From contig OZ220741.1 of the NCBI GenBank assembly GCA_965116885.1, positions 2,496,001 through 2,560,000 of the forward strand: a stretch of DNA of 64,000 nt, written 5' to 3'. Within the stretch, counting starts at the first letter, position 1, and the number at the start of each line of letters is the position of its first letter. The notes beneath the pieces are model-generated. The model ran no database searches and was not told the DNA's origin. It worked only from the letters and a program-made list of their open reading frames with translations. The position numbers were made by a program, and so were the translations under genes. Shown here in pieces: positions 2,994-62,417 of the stretch. This stretch comes from Candidatus Latescibacterota bacterium. GTDB lineage: Bacteria; Latescibacterota; UBA2968.

Positions 2994-4490
<1,497 letters not shown>

Positions 4491-4544
4491 CTATAGTAAA
4501 GTCGAGAAAGTCGATGAGGATTATTTTTCCCCTTCAGATAGAAT

Positions 4545-4581
4545 ACAAAAATCCCCTTGACGCAGACACATCAAGGGGATT
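4545..4581 (-). terminator. Intrinsic terminator / attenuator in the guaB 5' leader
   Basis: Perfect 11-bp stem AATCCCCTTGA/TCAAGGGGATT (4550-4560/4571-4581), followed by a T run on the minus strand, about 65 nt before the guaB start. Confidence 0.8.
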
Positions 4582-4679
4582 CAAGCGGTAGGCACAGTTA
4601 CACACTCCGCTCCGAGGCCTGGCGGAGGTGTAAACCGCCGTTTTTTTAGGCAACAATAAGTGTAAAGCCTCTGGTACAT
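4581..4679 (-). CDS. Putative 32-aa leader peptide MYQRLYTYCCLKKRRFTPPPGLGAECVTVPTA
   Basis: ATG at 4679 with GGAGA RBS 5 nt upstream. The TGA stop overlaps the first base of the terminator stem. Confidence 0.6.
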   Translation of the reverse strand: MYQRLYTYCCLKKRRFTPPPGLGAECVTVPTA

Positions 4680-4710
4680 GATCTTCTCCAAAACGCGACT
4701 ATATTTGTCA

Positions 4711-4739
4711 AATATACCGCTTCTCTTTTATTCTGTCAA
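4711..4739 (-). promoter_or_regulatory. sigma70-type promoter for the guaB leader
   Basis: TTGACA-17 nt-TATATT on the minus strand. Confidence 0.7.
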
Positions 4740-4978
4740 TATGTGTGAAATAGATTTTGTTCACAAGGGTCTCTGGAAAAGGGGTTGACACCGGTCTTTA
4801 CGGCTTATATTTTTTATTTTTATTCACTCGCACTTCTAAATATTGCCGTTGATTGATTAGTTGTTTTTACTTTTTGAGACCGGGATAATTAACACTTCTC
4901 ATAACGCATTGTTGCAGTGTTGGATATACCGGGAACTATACTGATTTATATTTCGTTTAATTTGAAGCGGATTTTGGC

Positions 4979-5007
4979 TTGACAGGGTTTTTTTCATTCA
5001 TTAGATT
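4979..5007 (+). promoter_or_regulatory. sigma70-type promoter for the TPR/ExbBD/TonB operon
   Basis: TTGACA-17 nt-TAGATT. Confidence 0.55.
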
Positions 5008-5126
5008 CTTCAGCCCTGCTACCTGTAATCGCATTATTTTGTGGTGTGGGTTATATATTGTTATTAACATGGAAGCGGCTTGTCTAAACTAAGTGTCGTT
5101 TTCTGCCGAATTTTTACCACAATATT

Positions 5127-6338
5127 ATGGAGATTGGGATCATGATTTTAGATTTGAAATTCCGATCTGGTTTTTTGGCTGTGCTGTGCGGTTTTTTTGT
5201 TTTGAGTACTGCGTCTCTTTGTTTTGCCGAAGAAGGCGAGACCGAGATGACACAGGCGGATTCTATCAAGAGGGCCGGTCAACATTTGGGTTGGGGTGAT
5301 CGGTATCTCAAGAGTGGGCAATACGAAGACGCCGAAACACAGTTGTTCAAATCCTGGGGGTTTAATCCCAGAAGAGGAGCAACGGCTCGACGCCTGGGCA
5401 AATTGTATAATGAAACAGAAAAATATGAGGATGCTATTCAGTGGTATCAAAAAGCCATTGAACTTGAACCCAAGAGCAAGTTCACCAAGGGGGCACATTT
5501 TGCCTTGGCTGGTATCTATATTATACAGGAACAGCCCGAGAACGCTATTGGGCATTATGAAGCGTTGCTGGCATTTAACCTCGAGTCAGAGGAAAAAATT
5601 AAATACTATCATGCGCTGGTCAGTTTGAATGTTGAAACTGGAGAATATGAAAAAGCATTGGATTATGCCAAAAAGTGGGGTGAATTGGCTCCTGATGATC
5701 CCGAAGTGCGGGATATGATTGGTAAATTGCATCTGCGAACAGGTGGCGAGGACGAAGCTCTGGCCGAAATGGAGAAAGTTCTGGAGATAAATCCCGATGA
5801 TTACGCTACACTGGAAAAATTGGCGGGTATGTATGAGCGAAGAGGCGATGATGATAAAGCCTTTGATGCCTTTGAAAAATTATATCAAAATGATGATTCG
5901 AGTGTTTTCTTTTTGGAAGAGACCATTAAATTGGGCAAGATGGTGGGAAAACCCAGAAGTTGGGTTGTCAACCGGCTTGAAAAATTACATGCCCTGCGGC
6001 CCGACAATCCGGGGGTGATCGAAGAACTGGCCGAGTTGACCGGGAGCCTCAAGTGGGTCAATAAAGGACTGAAACAAGATCCCCAAAATGGCAGGTACCC
6101 CTATATGATGGGGAATCATTATTCTAACAGGTGGGAAAATTCAAGTGCAAAACAGGATTCGATCAATGCCTTGATATGGTATAGAAGGGCGTTGAAAGAT
6201 CCGATGTGGAAAGGCAATGCCAACGCAATGATCCAAACACTTGATCCACCCCTGACCGAAGAAGAGAAGAAGCGTCGAGAATTTTTTGAAGATAGTAAAA
6301 AGAAAAAGGAGGAGGTGGAAACAGAAGGTAAGAAGTAG
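5127..6338 (+). CDS. Secreted tetratricopeptide-repeat protein
   Basis: Signal-peptide-like N-terminus and repeated TPR helices (AIQWYQKAIELEP, EKVLEINPDD). Confidence 0.85.
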   Translation: MEIGIMILDLKFRSGFLAVLCGFFVLSTASLCFAEEGETEMTQADSIKRAGQHLGWGDRYLKSGQYEDAETQLFKSWGFNPRRGATARRLGKLYNETEKYEDAIQWYQKAIELEPKSKFTKGAHFALAGIYIIQEQPENAIGHYEALLAFNLESEEKIKYYHALVSLNVETGEYEKALDYAKKWGELAPDDPEVRDMIGKLHLRTGGEDEALAEMEKVLEINPDDYATLEKLAGMYERRGDDDKAFDAFEKLYQNDDSSVFFLEETIKLGKMVGKPRSWVVNRLEKLHALRPDNPGVIEELAELTGSLKWVNKGLKQDPQNGRYPYMMGNHYSNRWENSSAKQDSINALIWYRRALKDPMWKGNANAMIQTLDPPLTEEEKKRREFFEDSKKKKEEVETEGKK

Positions 6339-54536: not shown

Positions 54537-54753
54537 TCACCGCTTGGGTATTTATCAATATTCTCTTAGATCCTACCTATAACCCTTTATTCTTTTTAAA
54601 ATCTGAAGCAGATCGGTCTTTTTTTAGGGAATTATATACAAAAGGGCCAGACAAATATTCCTATTAACGCGATTGACAAATGACCCGAACCTCACACATC
54701 CGTTTATACCATTATTTTGAAAATTCGCTTTCCAACTGATAGTCAAAAAATTT

Positions 54754-54919
54754 GGTAGTGCCTCATTTTGAAAATTCTCGGATGTTTTCTCTCTAAATGG
54801 GTGTCTCTTTTTCAATTTAAATTGGGGCGCGAGGCGCGAGAAACTCAAGAGTATAAAGAAAAGTGTCTCACTTTGAAATCCATCTGAAATCCGCAACGAA
54901 AATTTCAAAGTGAGACACT
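54754..54919 (+). repeat. Left end: five GTGTCTCAnTTTGAAA-like sites (fwd, fwd, rev, fwd, rev)
   Basis: Sites at 54754, 54797, 54829 (partial), 54862 and 54903; the last two form a perfect 18-bp inverted pair. Confidence 0.85.
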
Positions 54920-54938
54920 AAAAAAAGTTGAAAAAATT

Positions 54939-55193
54939 TTAGATGGACGAAATGCTTGAGTTTGGGACGCTATCGCCGAAACGAAATCTATTAAATTGTA
55001 ACTTGTCAAAGCGAGACAGTTGACGGTGCAATCCCAGTATCCCTTTGAAATAACACTCTGGCTTTAAGACGTTGCCATTTTCGTCTTTGCGATACACAAT
55101 AAACACGTCCTCGCGTGGACTACGCCTTGTAGCTGTAATTGTAGCGCAAGAGTAATCATCAGAAAATTCGAGTCGTACATTGGAAAATCCCAT
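54939..55193 (-). CDS. Small hypothetical protein (84 aa, MGFSNV…)
   Basis: ATG at 55193 after AAGGAG; upstream TTCCGT-17-TATAAT promoter (55277-55305). Confidence 0.6.
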   Translation of the reverse strand: MGFSNVRLEFSDDYSCATITATRRSPREDVFIVYRKDENGNVLKPECYFKGILGLHRQLSRFDKLQFNRFRFGDSVPNSSISSI

Positions 55194-55279
55194 GACTGTT
55201 CTCCTTACTTTGTGGTTGGAGCGGAATGGGATAGTGAGTGGGCGGTGGACAGACCGCCCACTCACGCTAAATTTTGATT
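55178..55279 (-). promoter_or_regulatory. Structured 5' leader, copy 1 (13-bp hairpin plus start-codon-sequestering stem)
   Basis: Direct repeat of 56379-56472; stem 55234-55246/55253-55265. Confidence 0.65.
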
Positions 55280-55396
55280 ATATTGGTAAAGATAGACAAA
55301 CGGAAGATTGCCTACAAGTTTTTCTCAATTCTAACAACAAATCCGTCTCGGAGTCATTGTGCCTTTTGGGGCGAGCGATTCAAAGAAAGGAAGTAA

Positions 55397-56167
55397 ATGA
55401 CACAATCTCGCATTATTGTAGAACCATCATGCAAATGGCGTCTGCAAGTAACTGAATTACAGGCATTATTAGAAAATGTAAGAGATGTTTTTGATGATCT
55501 ACTGGTTTGTCCGCCTGAATCTGGTATTATCGTGCGCTACTGTCCATCAGGTCCCAGAGTATTACACAAGCGGGCGGATGATGGATCGTATATTGTACTT
55601 CTTTTTGTATCGACTGATGGTTATGGTCAACCCATTTTTCAATTCGCTCATGAATACGGGCATATCCTCTCTAACTACCGATTTTATGGGCGTCACAAGA
55701 AACAGATTTGGTTTGAAGAATCAATATGTGCATTAGCATCTGCGTTTGCATTGAAAGGATTACAAACTAAATGGAATAACAGCGTGGACGATATGGCAAG
55801 AAATGTAAGGGCGTATCATGTGGGCGATTACTTTAAGTCCGCGTTTGGAGATATTTCTCGCCAATCAAATTTTGCACAATGGTACAGGAATAATAGAGAA
55901 GAACTTGAGAATATCGACTATCATCAGAGCGATAAAAAAGATATAGAACGTATTAGAAAGAAAAACGATATAGTGGCTATTGAGCTTCTTGATATTTTTG
56001 AAAAGTATCCCACTAAGTCGTGGAACGCCGTGCGCTACATGAATCAAGGTCACATAAGTATTGTGGACGAAAGCCTCACCCATTACTTAAACGACTGGCG
56101 TAAACGAACACCTGAACAGTGGCAATTTATAATAGGAAAAATTATGAAGCGATTTGAAATATCTTAA
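55397..56167 (+). CDS. HExxH zinc-metallopeptidase-like protein
   Basis: QFAHEYGHILS…WFEESIC (gluzincin-like HExxH plus downstream E). Confidence 0.7.
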   Translation: MTQSRIIVEPSCKWRLQVTELQALLENVRDVFDDLLVCPPESGIIVRYCPSGPRVLHKRADDGSYIVLLFVSTDGYGQPIFQFAHEYGHILSNYRFYGRHKKQIWFEESICALASAFALKGLQTKWNNSVDDMARNVRAYHVGDYFKSAFGDISRQSNFAQWYRNNREELENIDYHQSDKKDIERIRKKNDIVAIELLDIFEKYPTKSWNAVRYMNQGHISIVDESLTHYLNDWRKRTPEQWQFIIGKIMKRFEIS

Positions 56168-56190
56168 TCTGTTCACATTGGGCTTTCGCT

Positions 56191-56394
56191 CTAATTTCTG
56201 GCGGAATAAAGAAACTCGCGCAATACACTCAGAGGGTGAGTCTTAACCCAAACAGTTTCGGCATTGCCGTCATAGGTCGGAAACGTCTCGCCCTTAACAA
56301 TCATTAAATTCACCCTCCGGTCAGGTTTGTGTTCAGGGTTATAAATGCCAGGCTCCAGACACTTTTCGCCTGTTCTACCATTGGAAAATCCCAT
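56191..56394 (-). CDS. Small YjzC-like protein (67 aa, MGFSNG…)
   Basis: TGEKCLEPGIY…KGETFPT pattern; AGGAG RBS; paralog at 57400-57636. Confidence 0.65.
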   Translation of the reverse strand: MGFSNGRTGEKCLEPGIYNPEHKPDRRVNLMIVKGETFPTYDGNAETVWVKTHPLSVLREFLYSARN

Positions 56395-56472
56395 GACTAT
56401 CTCCTGCTATGGGGTTAATTGGGATAGTGTGTGGGTGGTGTCCCGACCGCCCACACACACTAAATTTTGATT
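56379..56472 (-). promoter_or_regulatory. Structured 5' leader, copy 2
   Basis: Direct repeat of 55178-55279 with a compensatory stem change; stem 56427-56439/56446-56458. Confidence 0.65.
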
Positions 56473-56543
56473 GTTGCTTTCTATAATTTACGATAGTCCG
56501 ATTTTAAAGTCCAGGTTCAAACTGAGACACTTGTACACAAAAA

Positions 56544-56582
56544 AGTCTGGCGAGCCATTTAATTAAAATGACCCGCCAGACT
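56544..56582 (-). terminator. Minus-strand intrinsic terminator; also the left direct repeat of the FRG gene
   Basis: AGTCTGGCGGGTCATTT-taatt-AAATGGCTCGCCAGACT plus T run (17-bp stem with two G-U pairs). Confidence 0.75.
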
Positions 56583-56610
56583 CAGCACAACACAATTTTG
56601 GGTTGACTTT

Positions 56611-57384
56611 ATGGAGAAAATAAAAATGAATAAAGAATTTTTTGATTGTTATTCGGAAGTGATTAAAAGCATTGTTGACTTATCGAAAAAACGATGTGGG
56701 GAAGGTTCTGGTATTGAAGTTCTTTATAGGGGAGAGCCTCAAAAGTATTCTTATATATCTTCTGGTTTGTATCGTTTTCTTTCGGATGTGTATAAGTGGG
56801 ACGAATTAGATTATGTGATGAAAAATCGTATTATAGTCAAGTCTGAAGAACTTATTGCACGGGATATTGTTTCTTTTGAAGGTATTGATGGGCATTATGT
56901 GGATATATGGCGGAATCAGGGGTATATGCCAACTCAATTAGTTAAATATTTTGCTGAAATTCAACATCTTGGCGGTATGACTAATTTGATAGATTTTACA
57001 AAGGATATTAACATAGCGTTGGTTTTTGCATGCAATACTCCTGATAGTTTGTTGGGTGACGAAGAAGGGGATGGACGTATCATAATTTATTATCATGACC
57101 GAAAAAACAGAAATGGAAATGATGTCCTTCATTTTCCCAAAAGTGGTTATGGTCACTTTCAATCGAGTATTTTGATTCGTCCTTTTGAAAATGGGATTCT
57201 TAAAGAAGATCAGGATTTTGTTGATATATTTGATATACCGTTTGAGAAAAAAGAGCCAATTTTGATAGCATTAAAAGAATACTATAATTTAACTGCTCGC
57301 TCTATTTATTCTGATTTGAATGGCTATATTCGGAATCAAAAGGGGTTTCTTAAAGTTGCTCTTTCAAATTTGGCGAATAAATAG
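56611..57384 (+). CDS. FRG domain protein
   Basis: LYRGE, SSGLYR and QHLGGMTNLIDFTKDINIALVFAC motifs; very AT-rich. Confidence 0.85.
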   Translation: MEKIKMNKEFFDCYSEVIKSIVDLSKKRCGEGSGIEVLYRGEPQKYSYISSGLYRFLSDVYKWDELDYVMKNRIIVKSEELIARDIVSFEGIDGHYVDIWRNQGYMPTQLVKYFAEIQHLGGMTNLIDFTKDINIALVFACNTPDSLLGDEEGDGRIIIYYHDRKNRNGNDVLHFPKSGYGHFQSSILIRPFENGILKEDQDFVDIFDIPFEKKEPILIALKEYYNLTARSIYSDLNGYIRNQKGFLKVALSNLANK

Positions 57385-57385
57385 A

Positions 57386-57419
57386 GGCGAACCATCCAAT
57401 TAAAATGACCCACCAGACT
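57386..57419 (+). repeat. Right 34-bp direct repeat of the FRG gene
   Basis: GGCGAACCATCCAATTAAAATGACCCACCAGACT versus 56549-56582 (30/34). Confidence 0.8.
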
Positions 57420-57636
57420 TCACGCCAATAAAACTGAGAACATAATCGCGTAACACGCGCAGATGTCCAGTCTGTTTCCAGTTAGTTTCGTTATTGCAAT
57501 TATAGGTCGGAAATACCTCGCCCTAAAAAATGATTAAATTTACGGTCTGGTCATGCCAGTGCTCAGGATTGTAAACCCCTGATACAAGGCACTTTTCGCC
57601 TTGACCATCAATTGTTTTCAGCGTGTTGCATCTCAT
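57400..57636 (-). pseudogene. Second YjzC-like gene with an in-frame TAG
   Basis: Manual translation GEKCLVSGVYNPEHWHDQTVNLIIF*GEVFPTY…LRVLRDY aligns with 56191-56394. TAG at 57523-57525 replaces AAG (Lys). The start position is uncertain. Confidence 0.75.
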
Positions 57637-57922
57637 TGATGAGGTCAATAAGATGCTCGGTTAATGTGTCAATGCGCCTGAATGCGTCATTTATCCGCAT
57701 GTTCGTTTGGTTTATGCGACTGTAAATTTGATGTATTCGCCTGTCCGTTTCGATTCGTGATTCGCACATTTGGTCTGTGATTAGCCTATTCATATTAAAC
57801 AAATGTTCTTTCATGTGCTCTTGCTCGTCAATGTGCTCTTGAATATGCTCATGAATGAACCTGTGCAGAATCTCTGACAAGCCATTGACCTCTGTTGTTG
57901 AGTGTATTTCGTGTATAGTCAT
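57608..57922 (-). CDS. Hypothetical coiled-coil protein
   Basis: Heptad-like RIETDRRIHQIYSRINQTNMRIND; GGGAGA RBS; upstream TTGCAT-17-TATCTT promoter. Confidence 0.6.
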   Translation of the reverse strand: MTIHEIHSTTEVNGLSEILHRFIHEHIQEHIDEQEHMKEHLFNMNRLITDQMCESRIETDRRIHQIYSRINQTNMRINDAFRRIDTLTEHLIDLINEMQHAENN

Positions 57923-58050
57923 TGTTCCTTCTCCCTTGCAATGAATATATAAGAATGTAGTTGTGCTGTTTGCAGGAGAAGATAGCGAAAACAGTATTGC
58001 GATGCAAGGGAAAAATTTGCGTAAGTTATTAAATTAAAATACTTTACAGC

Positions 58051-58201
58051 AGGTTTCTCACTTTGAAATTACAATCTAAAACTTTCAAAATGAGACACAA
58101 AAAGAAAAGAGTGCCTCGCATTTTACAATCATTTTGAAAGCGAGACACCCATGCAAATCTACGGCAAAAATGCTGATGAAATTTCAAACTGAGACTTTAC
58201 C
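58051..58201 (-). repeat. Right end: five sites mirroring the left end
   Basis: Sites at 58051, 58083, 58111 (partial), 58132 and 58182. Confidence 0.85.
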
Positions 58202-58208
58202 AAAAATT

Positions 58209-58949
58209 TTAACGAATCCGTATGATTGTTGCTCTAAAATCACAGGAACCCATTATACTCAACCTGGTTTGTAATAATGATAAATTTTCATCAAGTATCA
58301 CACCATTAGCTCCACGTCTTTTGGCATCCTCGCGCACAACTTCTAAAACTTCAAGAGGGGTAGAACGACGAATTACTTTAACAAAAATTTGTCCAATTTC
58401 TTCGTATTTCACGTTACTTGCACGATGTTCAAAAATTTTTACTTGCCCATCCCATTTCTCATACGTTTTTCCAGTCTCTAAAAACTCAATCTGAATATTA
58501 TTAGAAATAACACGTTTAGGCACAGTCTTAAAAACTCTCTTTGGAGATTCACTACCACCATCTCTAATATCTTTTAACCTATCTCTTATCCCATCAATAT
58601 CCCGCTTCATCTCCTCAATACTTACACGTACAGACCCAACAACCTGACCCAAATCATCCAGCCTTTTATTTTTTTTAATATTATTCCCTTTTAATTCAGA
58701 ATAATCTTCTTTGTCAATACCTGAATTTTTATTTTCTGAAACACCCTCATGAATCTCACGAACCTCACGCATTTCTAACCTGTAAACCTGATCGTACAAA
58801 GAATCAATTTTAACAGATAAAACATGCAACGAATCTTGTCCCTCACTATATAAATCATCCGTCCTAACAGATAATTGCTGTAAATTCAAATACAAAATCA
58901 CAGTAATTACAAAAAGTACAAACGTACATAACCATAACCCTTTGGACAT
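58209..58949 (-). CDS. Membrane-anchored coiled-coil hypothetical protein (passenger of the outer cassette)
   Basis: N-terminal TM, coiled coil and C-terminal AKRRGANGVIL (YbjQ-like) segment; GGAG RBS. Confidence 0.7.
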   Translation of the reverse strand: MSKGLWLCTFVLFVITVILYLNLQQLSVRTDDLYSEGQDSLHVLSVKIDSLYDQVYRLEMREVREIHEGVSENKNSGIDKEDYSELKGNNIKKNKRLDDLGQVVGSVRVSIEEMKRDIDGIRDRLKDIRDGGSESPKRVFKTVPKRVISNNIQIEFLETGKTYEKWDGQVKIFEHRASNVKYEEIGQIFVKVIRRSTPLEVLEVVREDAKRRGANGVILDENLSLLQTRLSIMGSCDFRATIIRIR

Positions 58950-59134
58950 ATAGATACTCCAGTCTAAAAAAATGAATATCTCATAAATACTGCATAGTTA
59001 CCATATTTAGTCCCGTCAAGAACACTCAAACTTTCCCTCGGCCCGTTTGTATATAATTCCCTTTTTTAAATGCAAGTTGTGAATGGGTACCATTTATATC
59101 GGTCAGAACCAAATTGCTGGACCTGATATTCATT

Positions 59135-59863
59135 TTACCACTCCCCTGATGTGTACTTAGTTTCCAATTCATTGAGTCCCATGAATTTCACACGTTTACG
59201 AATTTCGTGGAAAGTGTCCATTGAGATTTTGTCGGTAAAAATGTTTATCCGATGTTTTGGGGCAACAATGCTGAATTGTATATAAAAATCTTGCAGTTCG
59301 TTGAATTTAATCAACGAATTCTGCATATCCGTGGACATTTCAACTTCGAACATCGCTTCTGGCATCTTTCGTCGATTGAACCAGATAACATCCACGGTTT
59401 TGGCTTTACGCATAAAGTCTGGATAGCCAAAATTGGGTAGCTGCGTCGAATCGCATACATCGCCAAGTTTTTGATTACCGCCGAAGACTTGATTTTTGTC
59501 TTGAGCAGGGACATAGGTCTTGTAATCACGAGCCTTGCCGATTTCCACCAGCAAGCCCTGATAATGCGTGTGATTGCGTTTCTCCGCGTCACGCGGGATG
59601 TCGCCGCGTTGTGGGATTTTGTACTCTTTTTCAAATTCCTCGGCGCGTTCAGTAAGGCAATATAACCCCGGTTTGAGACGGTAAAAGTAGTCAGATTTTT
59701 CTTGCACAATGCGCCGAATGGTCGCCTCCGGTGTCTTGGTCTTCCAATTCACCCCAGCCCCGTTTGGCGGAAGAATATCGGAATTCAACTGTGATAATGT
59801 GGCGATACCACCCAGCCTTTTGAGTGCTTCTAAAACCTGCATCCACTGTGGAATACTTTTCAT
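59135..59863 (-). CDS. Winged-HTH (HARE-HTH-like) + PD-(D/E)XK restriction-endonuclease-like protein
   Basis: WKTKTPEATIRRIVQ…PGLY N-terminal domain; HTHYQGLLVEIG and VDVIWF…FEVEMST nuclease-like motif. Confidence 0.7.
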   Translation of the reverse strand: MKSIPQWMQVLEALKRLGGIATLSQLNSDILPPNGAGVNWKTKTPEATIRRIVQEKSDYFYRLKPGLYCLTERAEEFEKEYKIPQRGDIPRDAEKRNHTHYQGLLVEIGKARDYKTYVPAQDKNQVFGGNQKLGDVCDSTQLPNFGYPDFMRKAKTVDVIWFNRRKMPEAMFEVEMSTDMQNSLIKFNELQDFYIQFSIVAPKHRINIFTDKISMDTFHEIRKRVKFMGLNELETKYTSGEW

Positions 59864-60017
59864 CTATTTCCCCGTTTGGGCTTAGTCCTTTGGATTTGGA
59901 CTTGACCCGTTTTAGCGGACAACTTATCTCTTTCATGGATTCCACTAGACATAGGAGAGATCTCCTTTGCTGTAACAATGACTTCCATTTCTGAGCTCTC
60001 TAATTGATCTAACCTGT

Positions 60018-60599
60018 CTAATAGTTTTTTGTCCATAATTCCTCTTCTTCGGTCTCTGGCCTAATTTGTTTCTTCCTCAATTCTTCAAACTCATAATTAT
60101 CCAGTTCGATTTTGAGTTTAGTAAGATCTATCATTCGGACCAGCAAACAGAAAACATACCCTATTGCCACTGATATTAAAATAATAGACACAAAGAGCAT
60201 CCAGTATAGCTTAGGCTGTGTGGCGTTAGCGGATGTGTCATTTATTGGCGGATTTATTATAATCGCACAGAAAACAGCCAACATAGAACAGGCGACCACA
60301 AAGATCCAGCGCCAAATCAGCTCTATTTGCACATCTCCCAATTTATGAAAGAGTTCTTCTGCTCTATCGGAGTATTTGATGCCCTGTATCAGTGTTCGAG
60401 TTTGCGATATCCAACCGATACTCCATCCAACCAGAATTCCGGCAATAGCCGAGAAATTCCCAAGTGTCCGGACTATTTCAGTTGCTGTTTGAGGCGTTGG
60501 AAATAAATTAAATAAATAGACACACATAGACCCCAGGGAACCCAGAGCTCCAAAAAACATTGCCTGAATGAGGAGTTTTTTTGCCATATTCATGCCCAT
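60018..60599 (-). CDS. Hypothetical 4-TM membrane protein
   Basis: Four hydrophobic segments; co-oriented with and downstream of 60664-61620. Confidence 0.7.
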   Translation of the reverse strand: MGMNMAKKLLIQAMFFGALGSLGSMCVYLFNLFPTPQTATEIVRTLGNFSAIAGILVGWSIGWISQTRTLIQGIKYSDRAEELFHKLGDVQIELIWRWIFVVACSMLAVFCAIIINPPINDTSANATQPKLYWMLFVSIILISVAIGYVFCLLVRMIDLTKLKIELDNYEFEELRKKQIRPETEEEELWTKNY

Positions 60600-60663
60600 T
60601 TCTCAGTTTATTGGATACATGGATATACTCTCTAATTGCTTATTCAAAAAGTATTTATTTCCA

Positions 60664-61620
60664 TCATATATGTTCTTGTAGAGCCAGAGAATTATGCCAT
60701 TCGATCATTTTACGAAAAATATCTTGGTCATCAGGCATGTCATTTATGTGGACCACATCTTTTCGGGTGCTTAGCCGTAATTCATCGTATTTTAGCGTGC
60801 CTGAATCGGTTTCTACTTCAATGTGAATGTCTGTGTCATCGCCAACATGGCGAAAAGTGTTTGCCAGCGCGTCAATTTGGTCAGAAAGCCTTCTTGTCCC
60901 TCTCTTTTTTTTCAAAGCGAGAGATAGAGTGACTTCAATATCTTGGTCTTGGGTAACTCCGCGTGTGTATGTCTCTGTGATGTGTTCAGAGGATAGACCT
61001 GTCATTGCTTTTATCGCATCCCATCCACGTCCTATAGGCGGTAATGACCTTCTGGTTTTCAAGTCAGTGCTCAGAGGGGCTGAAATGTTGATTCGTCGTG
61101 CCCCTCTGATTTTGTCTCGGGATTTTCTCGATATTGTTCGCCGAATTATCATTTGCCGTTCTTTGAAAAATCCTGTCGCGCGTTTACAAAACATACTATT
61201 GAGATATTTTTCCAAGTGTCGCACTTGAAGGTGCTGATCTTGGGCGGCAATCAAGTAATTACGATAGCAGACAAAATAAAGTTTTCCCTTAAGAAATTGT
61301 TGATCAGTTCCATCCTGAGCAGGTGGGGCTTTGAGCACACCAGCCTGAAGTTCTTCACTATCAAGATCTTCTTTAATTATTTCTCCAATTCCATTCTTGT
61401 CATACTGGAAGAAGTTGGCACAAAAGAAACCTCTATAGATACTATTATAGTTGATGAGGTTGAGGCGGTTCGCTGCTATGTATTCATCAACTTCACGCAG
61501 CCGATCCCTAACTTTTGTATCTCTAAAAACATATATCAATAGATCTTGTAGTGTATAATTGTAGGGTTCATTAAACTGAGCCTGCCAATAAGTGAAACTT
61601 TTCTTTTTGAAATTAGCCAT
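60664..61620 (-). CDS. Hypothetical soluble protein (about 318 aa)
   Basis: Long AT-rich ORF; no motif recognised with confidence. Confidence 0.7.
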   Translation of the reverse strand: MANFKKKSFTYWQAQFNEPYNYTLQDLLIYVFRDTKVRDRLREVDEYIAANRLNLINYNSIYRGFFCANFFQYDKNGIGEIIKEDLDSEELQAGVLKAPPAQDGTDQQFLKGKLYFVCYRNYLIAAQDQHLQVRHLEKYLNSMFCKRATGFFKERQMIIRRTISRKSRDKIRGARRINISAPLSTDLKTRRSLPPIGRGWDAIKAMTGLSSEHITETYTRGVTQDQDIEVTLSLALKKKRGTRRLSDQIDALANTFRHVGDDTDIHIEVETDSGTLKYDELRLSTRKDVVHINDMPDDQDIFRKMIEWHNSLALQEHI

Positions 61621-61779
61621 AACTGTCAATGTCTTCCAAGCTTTTGTAAATACTGCGCTAGTGGGTATTTATATCTCTAAGATTTTATCTTCTTGAGAAG
61701 ATTCGATAGACTCCATTTAGACGCAAAATAAGAAAACGGTTAGAACTGAACCAGCTAAAAGCTGTCTGTGGCGTATATT

Positions 61780-61986
61780 TCAATTTTTTTTATTTGCTTT
61801 TCTCTGTTCCATTGCAGCTTTGCTTATCTCAGCGACATTTCTCTCGGACCAGAGGTTTTGCTGCCATTTCGTATAATCGAATGGCTCTCGCAAGATCAAG
61901 CTGATAAATTTCTCAGCTTCAACATCTCCCAAAACATCTACCAGTGCGCGTAGTCCATTTACTCGTATTTCAGTATCGGTTCTCAT
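61780..61986 (-). CDS. Putative antitoxin paired with the PIN protein
   Basis: GLRALVDVLGDVEAEKFI…FDYTKWQ; ATGA overlap with the PIN gene. Confidence 0.75.
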   Translation of the reverse strand: MRTDTEIRVNGLRALVDVLGDVEAEKFISLILREPFDYTKWQQNLWSERNVAEISKAAMEQRKANKKN

Positions 61987-62417
61987 AGATTCATCTCCCG
62001 AACAAAAGAGGTTGGATCTAAAACACTAATCCCCTGTATGTTTTGGCTACGCTTGAGGATTCTGTCATCCGTTGTCAAAAAATGACCACATCCTCCAGCT
62101 ATGGCACACGACAAGTGTAAAGCGTCCTTCGGCTTTAGCCCAAGTTTAACCAGATCGTCCGCTTTTTGCAAGATTACAGTCGTTTCCTCAAGATCGATAG
62201 CCGCGTATCGCTTCCAGTTAGTGATTACCGCGCGTCGCTCCTCAAAAGGATTCGCTTCGTTCTCAGAATCGATAATATATGACCAGACAAGTTCCAGCGT
62301 ACCCTCCCGAATATTCTCCTGAATACACAGCTTCGCTTCCGCTTCAAGGCGGACTCTTGTTTGCCCTTGATCATCAAATGGGCGATTGAAACAACAGTTA
62401 TCGAGATAGACTCTCAT
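61983..62417 (-). CDS. PIN domain (VapC-like) toxin
   Basis: VYLDNCCFNRPFDD, DALHLSCA and FLTTDD motifs. Confidence 0.88.
   Translation of the reverse strand: MRVYLDNCCFNRPFDDQGQTRVRLEAEAKLCIQENIREGTLELVWSYIIDSENEANPFEERRAVITNWKRYAAIDLEETTVILQKADDLVKLGLKPKDALHLSCAIAGGCGHFLTTDDRILKRSQNIQGISVLDPTSFVREMNL

Follow-up and report, generated by a model that had tools for sequence, protein, structure and literature searches.

Insertion sequences (ISs) of the IS1 family share the tip consensus GGnnnTG and a target duplication of 8-9 bp, and the IS1 of E. coli, which measures 768 bp, contains insA and insB but no cargo. An IS1 subgroup in ISfinder (ISMhu11) is listed with larger elements (up to ~4.6 kb) and with passenger genes; the name ISMhu11 was not found in the full-text literature, and none of the titles listed there for the IS1 family and passenger genes deals with IS1 cargo elements. 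The "transporter IS" of the IS1595 family has passenger genes as well, together with an 8-bp, often AT-rich duplication, and the title of Siguier et al. (2009) relates IS1595 to IS1. A different design, with several transposase-binding sites per end, is that of Mu, Tn7, IS21 and the inverted repeat/direct repeat (IR/DR) elements of the Tc1 type (Sleeping Beauty). Here we analyse an element of 3448 bp, at positions 54754-58201 of a 64-kb stretch of the genome of a Candidatus Latescibacterota bacterium (contig OZ220741.1, positions 2,496,001 to 2,560,000; hereafter, the window). Judging from its sequence, it is quite probably a non-autonomous, cargo-carrying derivative (a mobile insertion cassette, MIC) of an IS1-family lineage, and not a new family.

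According to PMC3129680, MICs consist of passenger genes flanked by the inverted repeats of an IS, with no transposase and with mobilization in trans, while in MITEs, equally devoid of transposase and mobilized in trans, the IS inverted repeats flank nothing. The window element has the organization of the former, with IS-type inverted repeats around passenger genes and no transposase. Its parent family, IS1, differs from that of MIC231, which derives from IS231, a member of the IS4 family, and no MIC is known to have multi-site ends or a cassette array in its interior. With the IS1 family it has in common the tip GGTA(A/G)TG.CTC and the 8-bp duplication, although it carries cargo, unlike the IS1 of E. 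coli. The IS1 relatives examined have a transposase and one site per end, whereas the window element has no transposase and four sites per end, and these multi-site ends set it apart from them.

The tips of the element and the transposase linked to such tips in relatives

The element starts with GGTA at 54754 and finishes with TACC at 58201, and the 8 bp on either side of it are identical (8/8). The features that delimit it are the following:

54754..54919, plus strand: left end; tip site GGTAGTGCCTCATTTTGAAA, core 54758-54773
58053..58201, minus strand: right end; tip site GGTAAAGTCTCAGTTTGAAA, core 58182-58197
54746..54753, no strand: left copy of the target-site duplication, AAAAATTT, identical to 58202-58209; 8 bp is the best register
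58202..58209, no strand: right copy of the target-site duplication, AAAAATTT; with its last base begins the stop codon of an open reading frame (ORF) on the minus strand, 58209-58949

Since AAAAATTT is nearly self-complementary, the window alone would also allow it to be taken for a continuation of the inverted repeat, but the position of the tip is settled by the relatives described below, whose 8-bp duplications are non-palindromic. The insertion spot is AT-rich and intergenic, right after a stop codon and inside a low-GC island, and the GC content of the element (38-41%, against 53-56% in the upstream flank) suggests a foreign origin. A first-pass annotation of this stretch had proposed a genuine transposable element with an exact 8-bp target duplication, and both the flanks and the duplications of the relatives bear this out.

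Both tips are diverged copies of a ~20-bp inverted repeat, GGTAGTGTCTCAGTTTGAAA, and the family 19-mer marks the two of them at <=2 mismatches (2 in the left tip). What else does this repeat bound? The whole element found no similar DNA in the plasmid and phage collections (blastn, E<=1e-3), the left end alone gave only three short matches, judged spurious, among plasmids at E<=10, and the sole match of the end sequence in the full-text literature was unrelated (breast cancer). Relatives were returned by a pattern scan of 185,579 representative genomes for the innermost inverted pair of sites (sites 4 and 5, see below), written as TCTCANTTTGAA-N(9-39)-TTCAAANTGAGA, which gave 53 loci. In 38 of these there is no copy of the 16-mer end site GTGTCTCANTTTGAAA at <=2 mismatches, and the solitary loci among those 38 were judged to be ordinary hairpins. 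A mini-element from the scan (L009) was then used as a blastn query against plasmids (E<=10), matching nine records, eight of them from Hyphomicrobiales; six plasmid records were inspected (Shinella, Hoeflea, Bradyrhizobium, Rhizobium sp. TH2 and both Mesorhizobium).

It is in the Hoeflea plasmid that the tips meet a transposase: they lie 4224 bp apart, with GATGATTG duplicated exactly on their outer sides, and between them is a gene that carries the annotation "IS1 family transposase", around which no closer inverted repeat was found. Its product (P0001, 293 aa) matched 14 plasmid records in tblastn, and the four with >=98% coverage (58-100% identity), one of which is the Hoeflea element itself, were examined. 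The family tip bounds all four of these elements, in which the P0001-type transposase is full-length, with exact duplications in three:

L055, Hoeflea: 4224 bp, flanks GATGATTG, 8/8
L062, Acidiphilium: 2634 bp, flanks AAGCCGAG, 8/8
L064, Mesorhizobium loti: 3370 bp, flanks CGCTGGTG, 8/8
L063, Methylocapsa: 3125 bp, flanks 4/8

In each of them the transposase gene faces the right tip, with 9-902 bp between its end and that tip, and an IS1-type transposase is the sole gene that the larger relatives have in common. Single-ORF elements of the IS1 family are annotated in alphaproteobacterial plasmids (NZ_CP011481.1, NZ_CP041717.1, CP050295.1 and NZ_CP136863.1), and it is the identical 19-20-bp inverted repeat that bounds IS1-type DDE transposase genes. 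As a separate observation, the left ends of L055, L062 and L064 share, ~60-95 bp from the tip and upstream of the first small ORF, a palindrome (ATGCTT..AAGCAT) that may be a regulatory site of the plasmid lineage.

The Hoeflea protein matches Pfam DDE_Tnp_IS1 (PF03400) at 3e-07 (31.3 bits, gathering score 24.1), its best NCBIfam model is IS1 (NF033558; 1.9e-18, 67.1 bits), with far lower scores for IS481, IS6, IS1595 and ISL3, and it aligns in BLASTP with E. coli InsB (E 1e-06), including the D, D and E blocks. Its homologues form at least 8000 clusters, and the best 120 listed are mostly named "IS1 family transposase"; a PDB sequence search returned nothing below E 0.25. As for the tips, the ends of E. 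coli IS1A are GGTAATGACTCC and GGTGATGCTGCC (annotated in K-12 as the terminal sequences GGTAATGACTCCAACTT and GGTGATGCTGCCAACTT), i.e., they start with GGTAATG and GGTGATG, and the right end of the Acidiphilium element, GGTAATGTCTC (GGTAATGTCTCAGTTTG), equals IS1A at 10 of its first 11 bases. The left end of the window element (GGTAGTG) fits GGnnnTG and the right end (GGTAAAG) is one base off, while at least one tip starting with GGTAGTG is present in 10 of the 13 other paired relatives. As to the more distant IS1-family genes H14 and H17, a search around them gave no clear inverted repeat in Sphingomonas, and in Deinococcus a 53-bp repeat containing GGTAGTTGTCTGG. Thus, where the first-pass annotation had recognized no family, the terminal ~20 bp turn out to be the inverted repeat of a widespread lineage with an IS1-family DDE transposase.

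The nearest family proposed in that annotation was IS1595, and a cargo derivative of IS1595 rather than of IS1 would agree with the duplication length and passenger genes of that family, with its kinship to IS1, and with a weak match of P0001 to the NCBIfam IS1595 model (E 0.0012). Nevertheless, that match reaches 18.7 bits (cutoff 75) against 67.1 for IS1, DDE_Tnp_IS1 is above its gathering score, and the alignment with InsB over the catalytic blocks, the names of the best 120 clusters listed and the Acidiphilium right end all point to IS1; the transposases attached to window-type tips fit the IS1 models better, and an IS1595 origin is very unlikely. The several subterminal repeats of each end could also be those of a Tn7-, Mu- or Tn552-type element after gene loss, except that the tips read GG...CC and not TG...CA, that 10 of 14 relatives have a duplication of 8 bp instead of 5 bp, that there is symmetry between the ends, and that the same tips bound IS1-type and not rve-type genes. 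To that origin, whose Tn7 and Mu variants the first-pass annotation had already set aside, we grant next to no probability.

The IS1-type tips also bound elements with other contents or with none. The tiny ones, of 49-77 bp, are two inverted tip sites (GGTAGTGTCTCAGTTTGAA...TTCAAACTGAGACACTACC) without a transposase, and the tip-bounded derivatives that lack this gene span 49-880 bp and several phyla (MAG, metagenome-assembled genome):

L009 (Terriglobales MAG), L031 (Chitinophagaceae MAG), L042 (Pseudohongiella): tiny elements
L002 and L025 (Binatia), L022 (alphaproteobacterium), L053 (Geobacter): tiny elements
L043 (Parvularculaceae MAG): 880-bp element with three small ORFs and no transposase

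The Shinella plasmid element (L054) has just one gene between its two tips, which is NTF2-like (543 bp, flanks 7/8). Considering the 14 elements with two inverted tips, and excluding the single-tip L051, L056/L058, L057/L059, L060 and L061, the 8-bp flanks are identical in six (the window element, L009, L031, L055, L062 and L064) and match at 7/8 in four (L042, L043, L054 and L002), 8 bp being the best register in these ten. For the solo tips, no partner was found within 44 kb (L056/L058) or 41 kb (L057/L059), and L060 and L061 are also single tips. Close to one of them, at L057 6870-6959 (= L059 39058-39147), lies a 30-aa C-terminal remnant of a P0001-like transposase (67% identical); this remnant, in the Rhizobium sp. 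TH2 plasmid and ~1 kb inside the solo right tip, has the look of an autonomous copy in decay. As a candidate family with 8-bp duplications, IS66 was considered through an element in L058 and discarded, no related inverted repeat being seen.

Could the window element be autonomous after all, with one of its unannotated ORFs encoding a new kind of transposase? Four of its six ORFs have no significant family match, which leaves room for it. However, other elements bounded by these tips have cargo of a wholly different kind (the NTF2-like gene of L054, the small ORFs of L043) or, in the 49-77-bp copies, none, so no ORF of the window element is needed for movement; furthermore, only the IS1-type transposase is common to the larger relatives, and the 256-aa ORF of the window element resembles an HExxH peptidase. 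We regard autonomy as highly improbable. In fact, Pfam, NCBIfam and PADLOC detected no transposase or recombinase in the six ORFs, a Pfam scan of these and seven neighbouring ORFs found no recombinase, IntI included, and tblastn with P0001 found no match in the 64-kb window. The six cargo ORFs without transposase or recombinase of the first-pass annotation are therefore confirmed, and because no ORF matches an IS1-type transposase the element can only be a non-autonomous derivative, which, given its IS1-type ends, makes it a MIC. That it presumably moves in trans, as also proposed at first pass, is backed by its carrying cargo and encoding no transposase.

Several observations weigh against the derivation from an IS1-family lineage or limit it. 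The window itself contains no IS1-type transposase, and the four autonomous relatives, all from alphaproteobacteria, have a single site in each end; among the relatives examined, multi-site ends never came with a transposase gene, and the cognate enzyme of the lineage of the window element is inferred, not seen. The same is true of transposase binding at the subterminal sites, a pure inference. Moreover, the NCBIfam IS1 score of P0001 (67 bits) is below the model cutoff (100 bits), four of the 14 paired elements have no duplication (flanks 4/8 or fewer), and the window element may no longer be mobile, because its right tip reads GGTAAAG and not GGTAGTG.

Four-site ends

With the 16-mer GTGTCTCANTTTGAAA and <=3 mismatches, the 64-kb window contains 12 matches, against 2.05 +/- 1.48 in 100 dinucleotide-preserving shuffles, none of which reaches 12. 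Ten of the 12 lie within 54758-58197, eight of them in the two ends and two internally, at 55004-55019 (3 mismatches) and 56515-56530 (1 mismatch). Each end has four ungapped copies, with the inward orientation +,+,+,- in both. Their starts are +5, +48, +110 and +150 for the left end; those of the right one are +5, +54, +104 and +134. The four-site ends measure ~150-165 bp. Besides the tip sites, already listed, they comprise (the number 3 being that of the GCGAGGC motif):

54801-54816, plus strand: left end site 2, ungapped GTGTCTCANTTTGAAA copy
54829-54835: left end GCGAGGC motif, shared by both ends
54863-54878, plus strand: left end site 4, ungapped GTGTCTCANTTTGAAA copy
54903-54918, reversed: left end site 5, ungapped GTGTCTCANTTTGAAA copy
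58133-58148: right end site 2, ungapped GTGTCTCANTTTGAAA copy
58113-58119 (reverse complement): right end GCGAGGC motif, shared by both ends
58083-58098: right end site 4, ungapped GTGTCTCANTTTGAAA copy
58053-58068, reversed: right end site 5, ungapped GTGTCTCANTTTGAAA copy
56515..56530, minus strand: internal end-site copy GTGTCTCAGTTTGAAC, 1 mismatch, without GGTA tip, between two cassettes

The first-pass annotation had counted five sites per end in mirrored order. Four of them are clear and ungapped, in the same order and orientation in both ends, but the third, reversed site was not recovered as an ungapped copy even at 4 mismatches: only the GCGAGGC assigned to it is common to both ends. 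The agreement noticed at site 2 holds, with the variant ATGGGTGTCTC in both ends, and so does the unrelatedness of the spacers, which between the left and the right end are 42% identical (46/109; shuffled spacers, 41%), while the sites are 86% identical (55/64). In all the between-end comparisons, sites range from 83 to 86% and spacers from 42 to 53%, against 41-45% when shuffled. No inner site has a GGTA tip or a flanking 8-bp repeat. Sites 4 and 5 of the left end form a perfect inverted pair of 18 bp, for which Rfam returned only three sub-threshold microRNA look-alikes.

Among the relatives examined, this layout occurs only in the window element, at both ends, and in L051, at its single visible end:

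L051 (uncultured-bacterium contig): four-site right end like that of the window element; homologues of small ORF A, the YjzC-like ORF and the FRG gene

Its left end has probably been destroyed, because transposase genes occupy the place where it would be expected (4396-5376: a Y1 transposase gene of the IS200 type, at Pfam 2.2e-40, together with part of a DDE_Tnp_1 transposase). There are also long ORFs upstream of this region. Elsewhere, the ends hold one site (the four transposase-bearing relatives and L054) or two (the left end of L043).

Two explanations compete for the inner sites. They might be the debris of nested tiny derivatives or solo ends, only the outermost site being relevant: the 49-77-bp elements are inverted tip sites 10-40 bp apart, which is the geometry of the site 4/5 pair, the left end of L043 holds a complete tiny element followed by cargo, and there is a stray internal site at 56515-56530, which may be left over from an earlier end or from two elements having fused. 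Yet debris would hardly agree with a number, order, orientation and approximate spacing of the four sites that coincide in three ends of two diverged elements, with the site-specific variant ATGGGTGTCTC at site 2 of both ends, with the 83-86% identity of the sites while the spacers are at the shuffled level, or with inner sites that all lack both the GGTA tip and the flanking repeat; we therefore find it unlikely. Because the layout is the same in the three ends and the sites are conserved while the spacers are not, the inner sites probably have a function, the simplest one being to bind additional transposase without offering a tip for cleavage. Such repeated subterminal copies with the outermost one at the cleavage point recall Mu, Tn7, IS21 and the IR/DR elements, but the resemblance is only one of design, since these have other transposase families, tips and duplication lengths, and the ends of the window element are symmetric.

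Cargo genes and cassette-like interior

The six ORFs of the element, together with a degenerate gene copy, are arranged as follows:

54939..55193, minus strand: small ORF A, 84 aa from a conserved ATG (MGFSNVRLE...), no Pfam family
55397..56167, plus strand: cargo ORF, putative metallopeptidase, 256 aa, HEYGH (HExxH) motif
56191..56394, minus strand: small ORF B, YjzC-like, 67 aa; PF14168 at E 0.007, below cutoff
56611..57384, plus strand: FRG-domain protein, candidate anti-phage effector, 257 aa; Pfam FRG 9e-09
57439..57601, minus strand: third, degenerate copy of the YjzC-like gene, 71% identical to 56209-56371
57608..57922, minus strand: His/Glu-rich cargo ORF, 104 aa; weak PADLOC PDC-S15 match, E 7.7e-4

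The FRG ORF also matches the PADLOC candidate defence gene PDC-S15 (2.7e-08), and PMC9503650 assigns Frg to the ADP-ribosyltransferase superfamily and counts it among the predicted antiviral effectors, perhaps as an NADase. The 256-aa ORF has no Pfam match, and its nearest Atlas cluster is a "putative M64 family metallopeptidase" (score 0.98). Small ORF A belongs to one of three clusters, its own included, in 5.8 billion proteins, which leaves it with only two relatives, and had no usable match in the Atlas; it shares 82% nucleotide and 72% amino-acid identity with L051 6390-6596. Small ORF B is 71% identical in nucleotides to L051 8633-8830 (for the YjzC-like ORF with its leader, the identity is also 71%), and it starts with MGFSN, like small ORF A. 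In the degenerate third copy, the remaining ORF has only 41 aa (57523-57648). The cargo genes are likely anti-phage genes.

The interior is periodic, at ~1.19-1.23 kb in the window element and ~1.155-1.16 kb in L051, and each ~1.2-kb unit opens with a conserved, hairpin-bearing leader, after which come a small ORF (MGFSN...) and a convergent gene of ~210-270 aa. The larger gene is likely of the conflict or defence type: FRG/PDC-S15 and HExxH peptidase in the window element, AbiC-like in L051, whose units carry putAbiC (1.7e-14), a 210-aa ORF without known family and FRG (5.4e-10). Two kinds of hairpin accompany the units:

55234..55265, minus strand: leader hairpin upstream of small ORF A, 13-bp stem
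56427..56458, minus strand: leader hairpin upstream of small ORF B, 13-bp stem
L051 6300-6335, 7463-7500 and 8623-8659: leader hairpins upstream of small ORFs
56543..56583, no strand: second hairpin repeat (D5/D6), first copy, upstream of the FRG gene, from the repeat comparison
57386..57414, no strand: second hairpin repeat (D5/D6), second copy, at the FRG stop codon, from the repeat comparison

Since three pairs of its 13-bp stem change on both sides among the five copies (two in the window element, three in L051), the leader hairpin probably constitutes a structured element, either RNA or DNA; no Rfam family matched it, and at gathering score Rfam detected only tRNA. Like the boundaries of a cassette, the two copies of the second hairpin, which share 88% identity at a spacing of 837 bp, stand on either side of the FRG gene, and there is an incomplete third one at 55370-55388, upstream of the HExxH gene. 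A sigma-70 promoter scan did no better than shuffles (13 against 12.1).

This arrangement in tandem units of similar size, with a conserved hairpin boundary and different payload genes, may be likened to integron arrays, a likeness limited to the interior layout. Integrons have an integrase, and none was found in the element and the neighbouring ORFs scanned; their hairpin is at the 3' end of the cassette, whereas here it is in the leader upstream of the small ORF; and the units hold convergent gene pairs, unlike integron cassettes. The analysis also yielded no sign of site-specific recombination. With respect to what appears new, the ~150-165-bp four-site ends and the interior of ~1.2-kb cassettes, each with hairpin leader, small ORF and conflict-type gene, both look so.

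Setting, proposed mechanism and significance

The element lies at the edge of a low-GC stretch (~54540-62000; 33-44% GC, against ~53% elsewhere), where ORF 59135-59863 has a weak match to a type II restriction enzyme (PADLOC 1.5e-07) and several other ORFs have no family; this stretch may be a defence island that received the element. Upstream, positions 1-54000 of the window display a strong and sustained positive GC skew (0.2-0.34) across most of the plus-strand coding stretches.

The pattern scan also returned two repeats that were set aside, neither of them with a GTGTCTCANTTTGAAA copy at <=2 mismatches. One, of ~140 nt and multi-copy, occupies nine loci in two Sediminispirochaeta MAGs (L001, L004, L007, L017, L035, L037, L038, L046 and L048); its end is GCAATTCTCATTTTGAAG, its inside has two more copies of ATTCTCAnTTTG, and it constitutes a MITE-like element of its own, with repeated sites. 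The ORFs of two of these loci, L004 and L007, were listed, and none was evidently a transposase. The other, with nine copies in one Roseovarius MAG (L003, L010, L011, L014, L015, L021, L024, L026 and L050), contains a long palindrome (GATGATCTCTCCCTCTCATTTTGAAGCC...), conserved in its flanks to either side, and probably belongs to a multi-copy mobile element that has no relation to that of the window.

Regarding the mechanism, an IS1-family transposase encoded elsewhere in the genome would bind the GTGTCTCAnTTTGAAA core through its N-terminal helix-turn-helix domain, cleave at the GG tip and, with a stagger of 8 bp, insert the element. In each end, the three additional subterminal copies, without GGTA tip, would be bound but not cleaved, and would contribute to the assembly or regulation of the transpososome, like those of IR/DR or Mu/Tn7-type ends; this would keep the sites conserved while the spacers are randomized. 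The innermost inverted pair (sites 4/5) may, in addition, terminate outward transcription. The cargo would be a short array of ~1.2-kb modules, and the element a vehicle of anti-phage genes. Going one step further, it is possible, although we are doubtful about it, that an IS1 sub-lineage with four-site ends acts as a transposase-less shuttle for a recombining, integron-like array of defence cassettes, moved in trans.

For an apparently orphan element, the likely transposase family can now be named, and autonomous, cargo-only and miniature members with duplications have been identified. If the subterminal sites bind transposase, IS1-type enzymes can use multi-site ends that are otherwise tied to Mu, Tn7 and IR/DR elements. 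The cassette-like interior, with the covarying hairpin of its leaders, may serve for regulation or for recombination. The lineage repeatedly carries conflict genes: FRG, AbiC-like and HExxH peptidase genes in the window element and L051, and XRE-Peptidase_M78 fusions and a ClpP-like protease in the plasmid relatives. In this way, elements of the window type add a small and easily missed vehicle to the routes by which defence genes spread.

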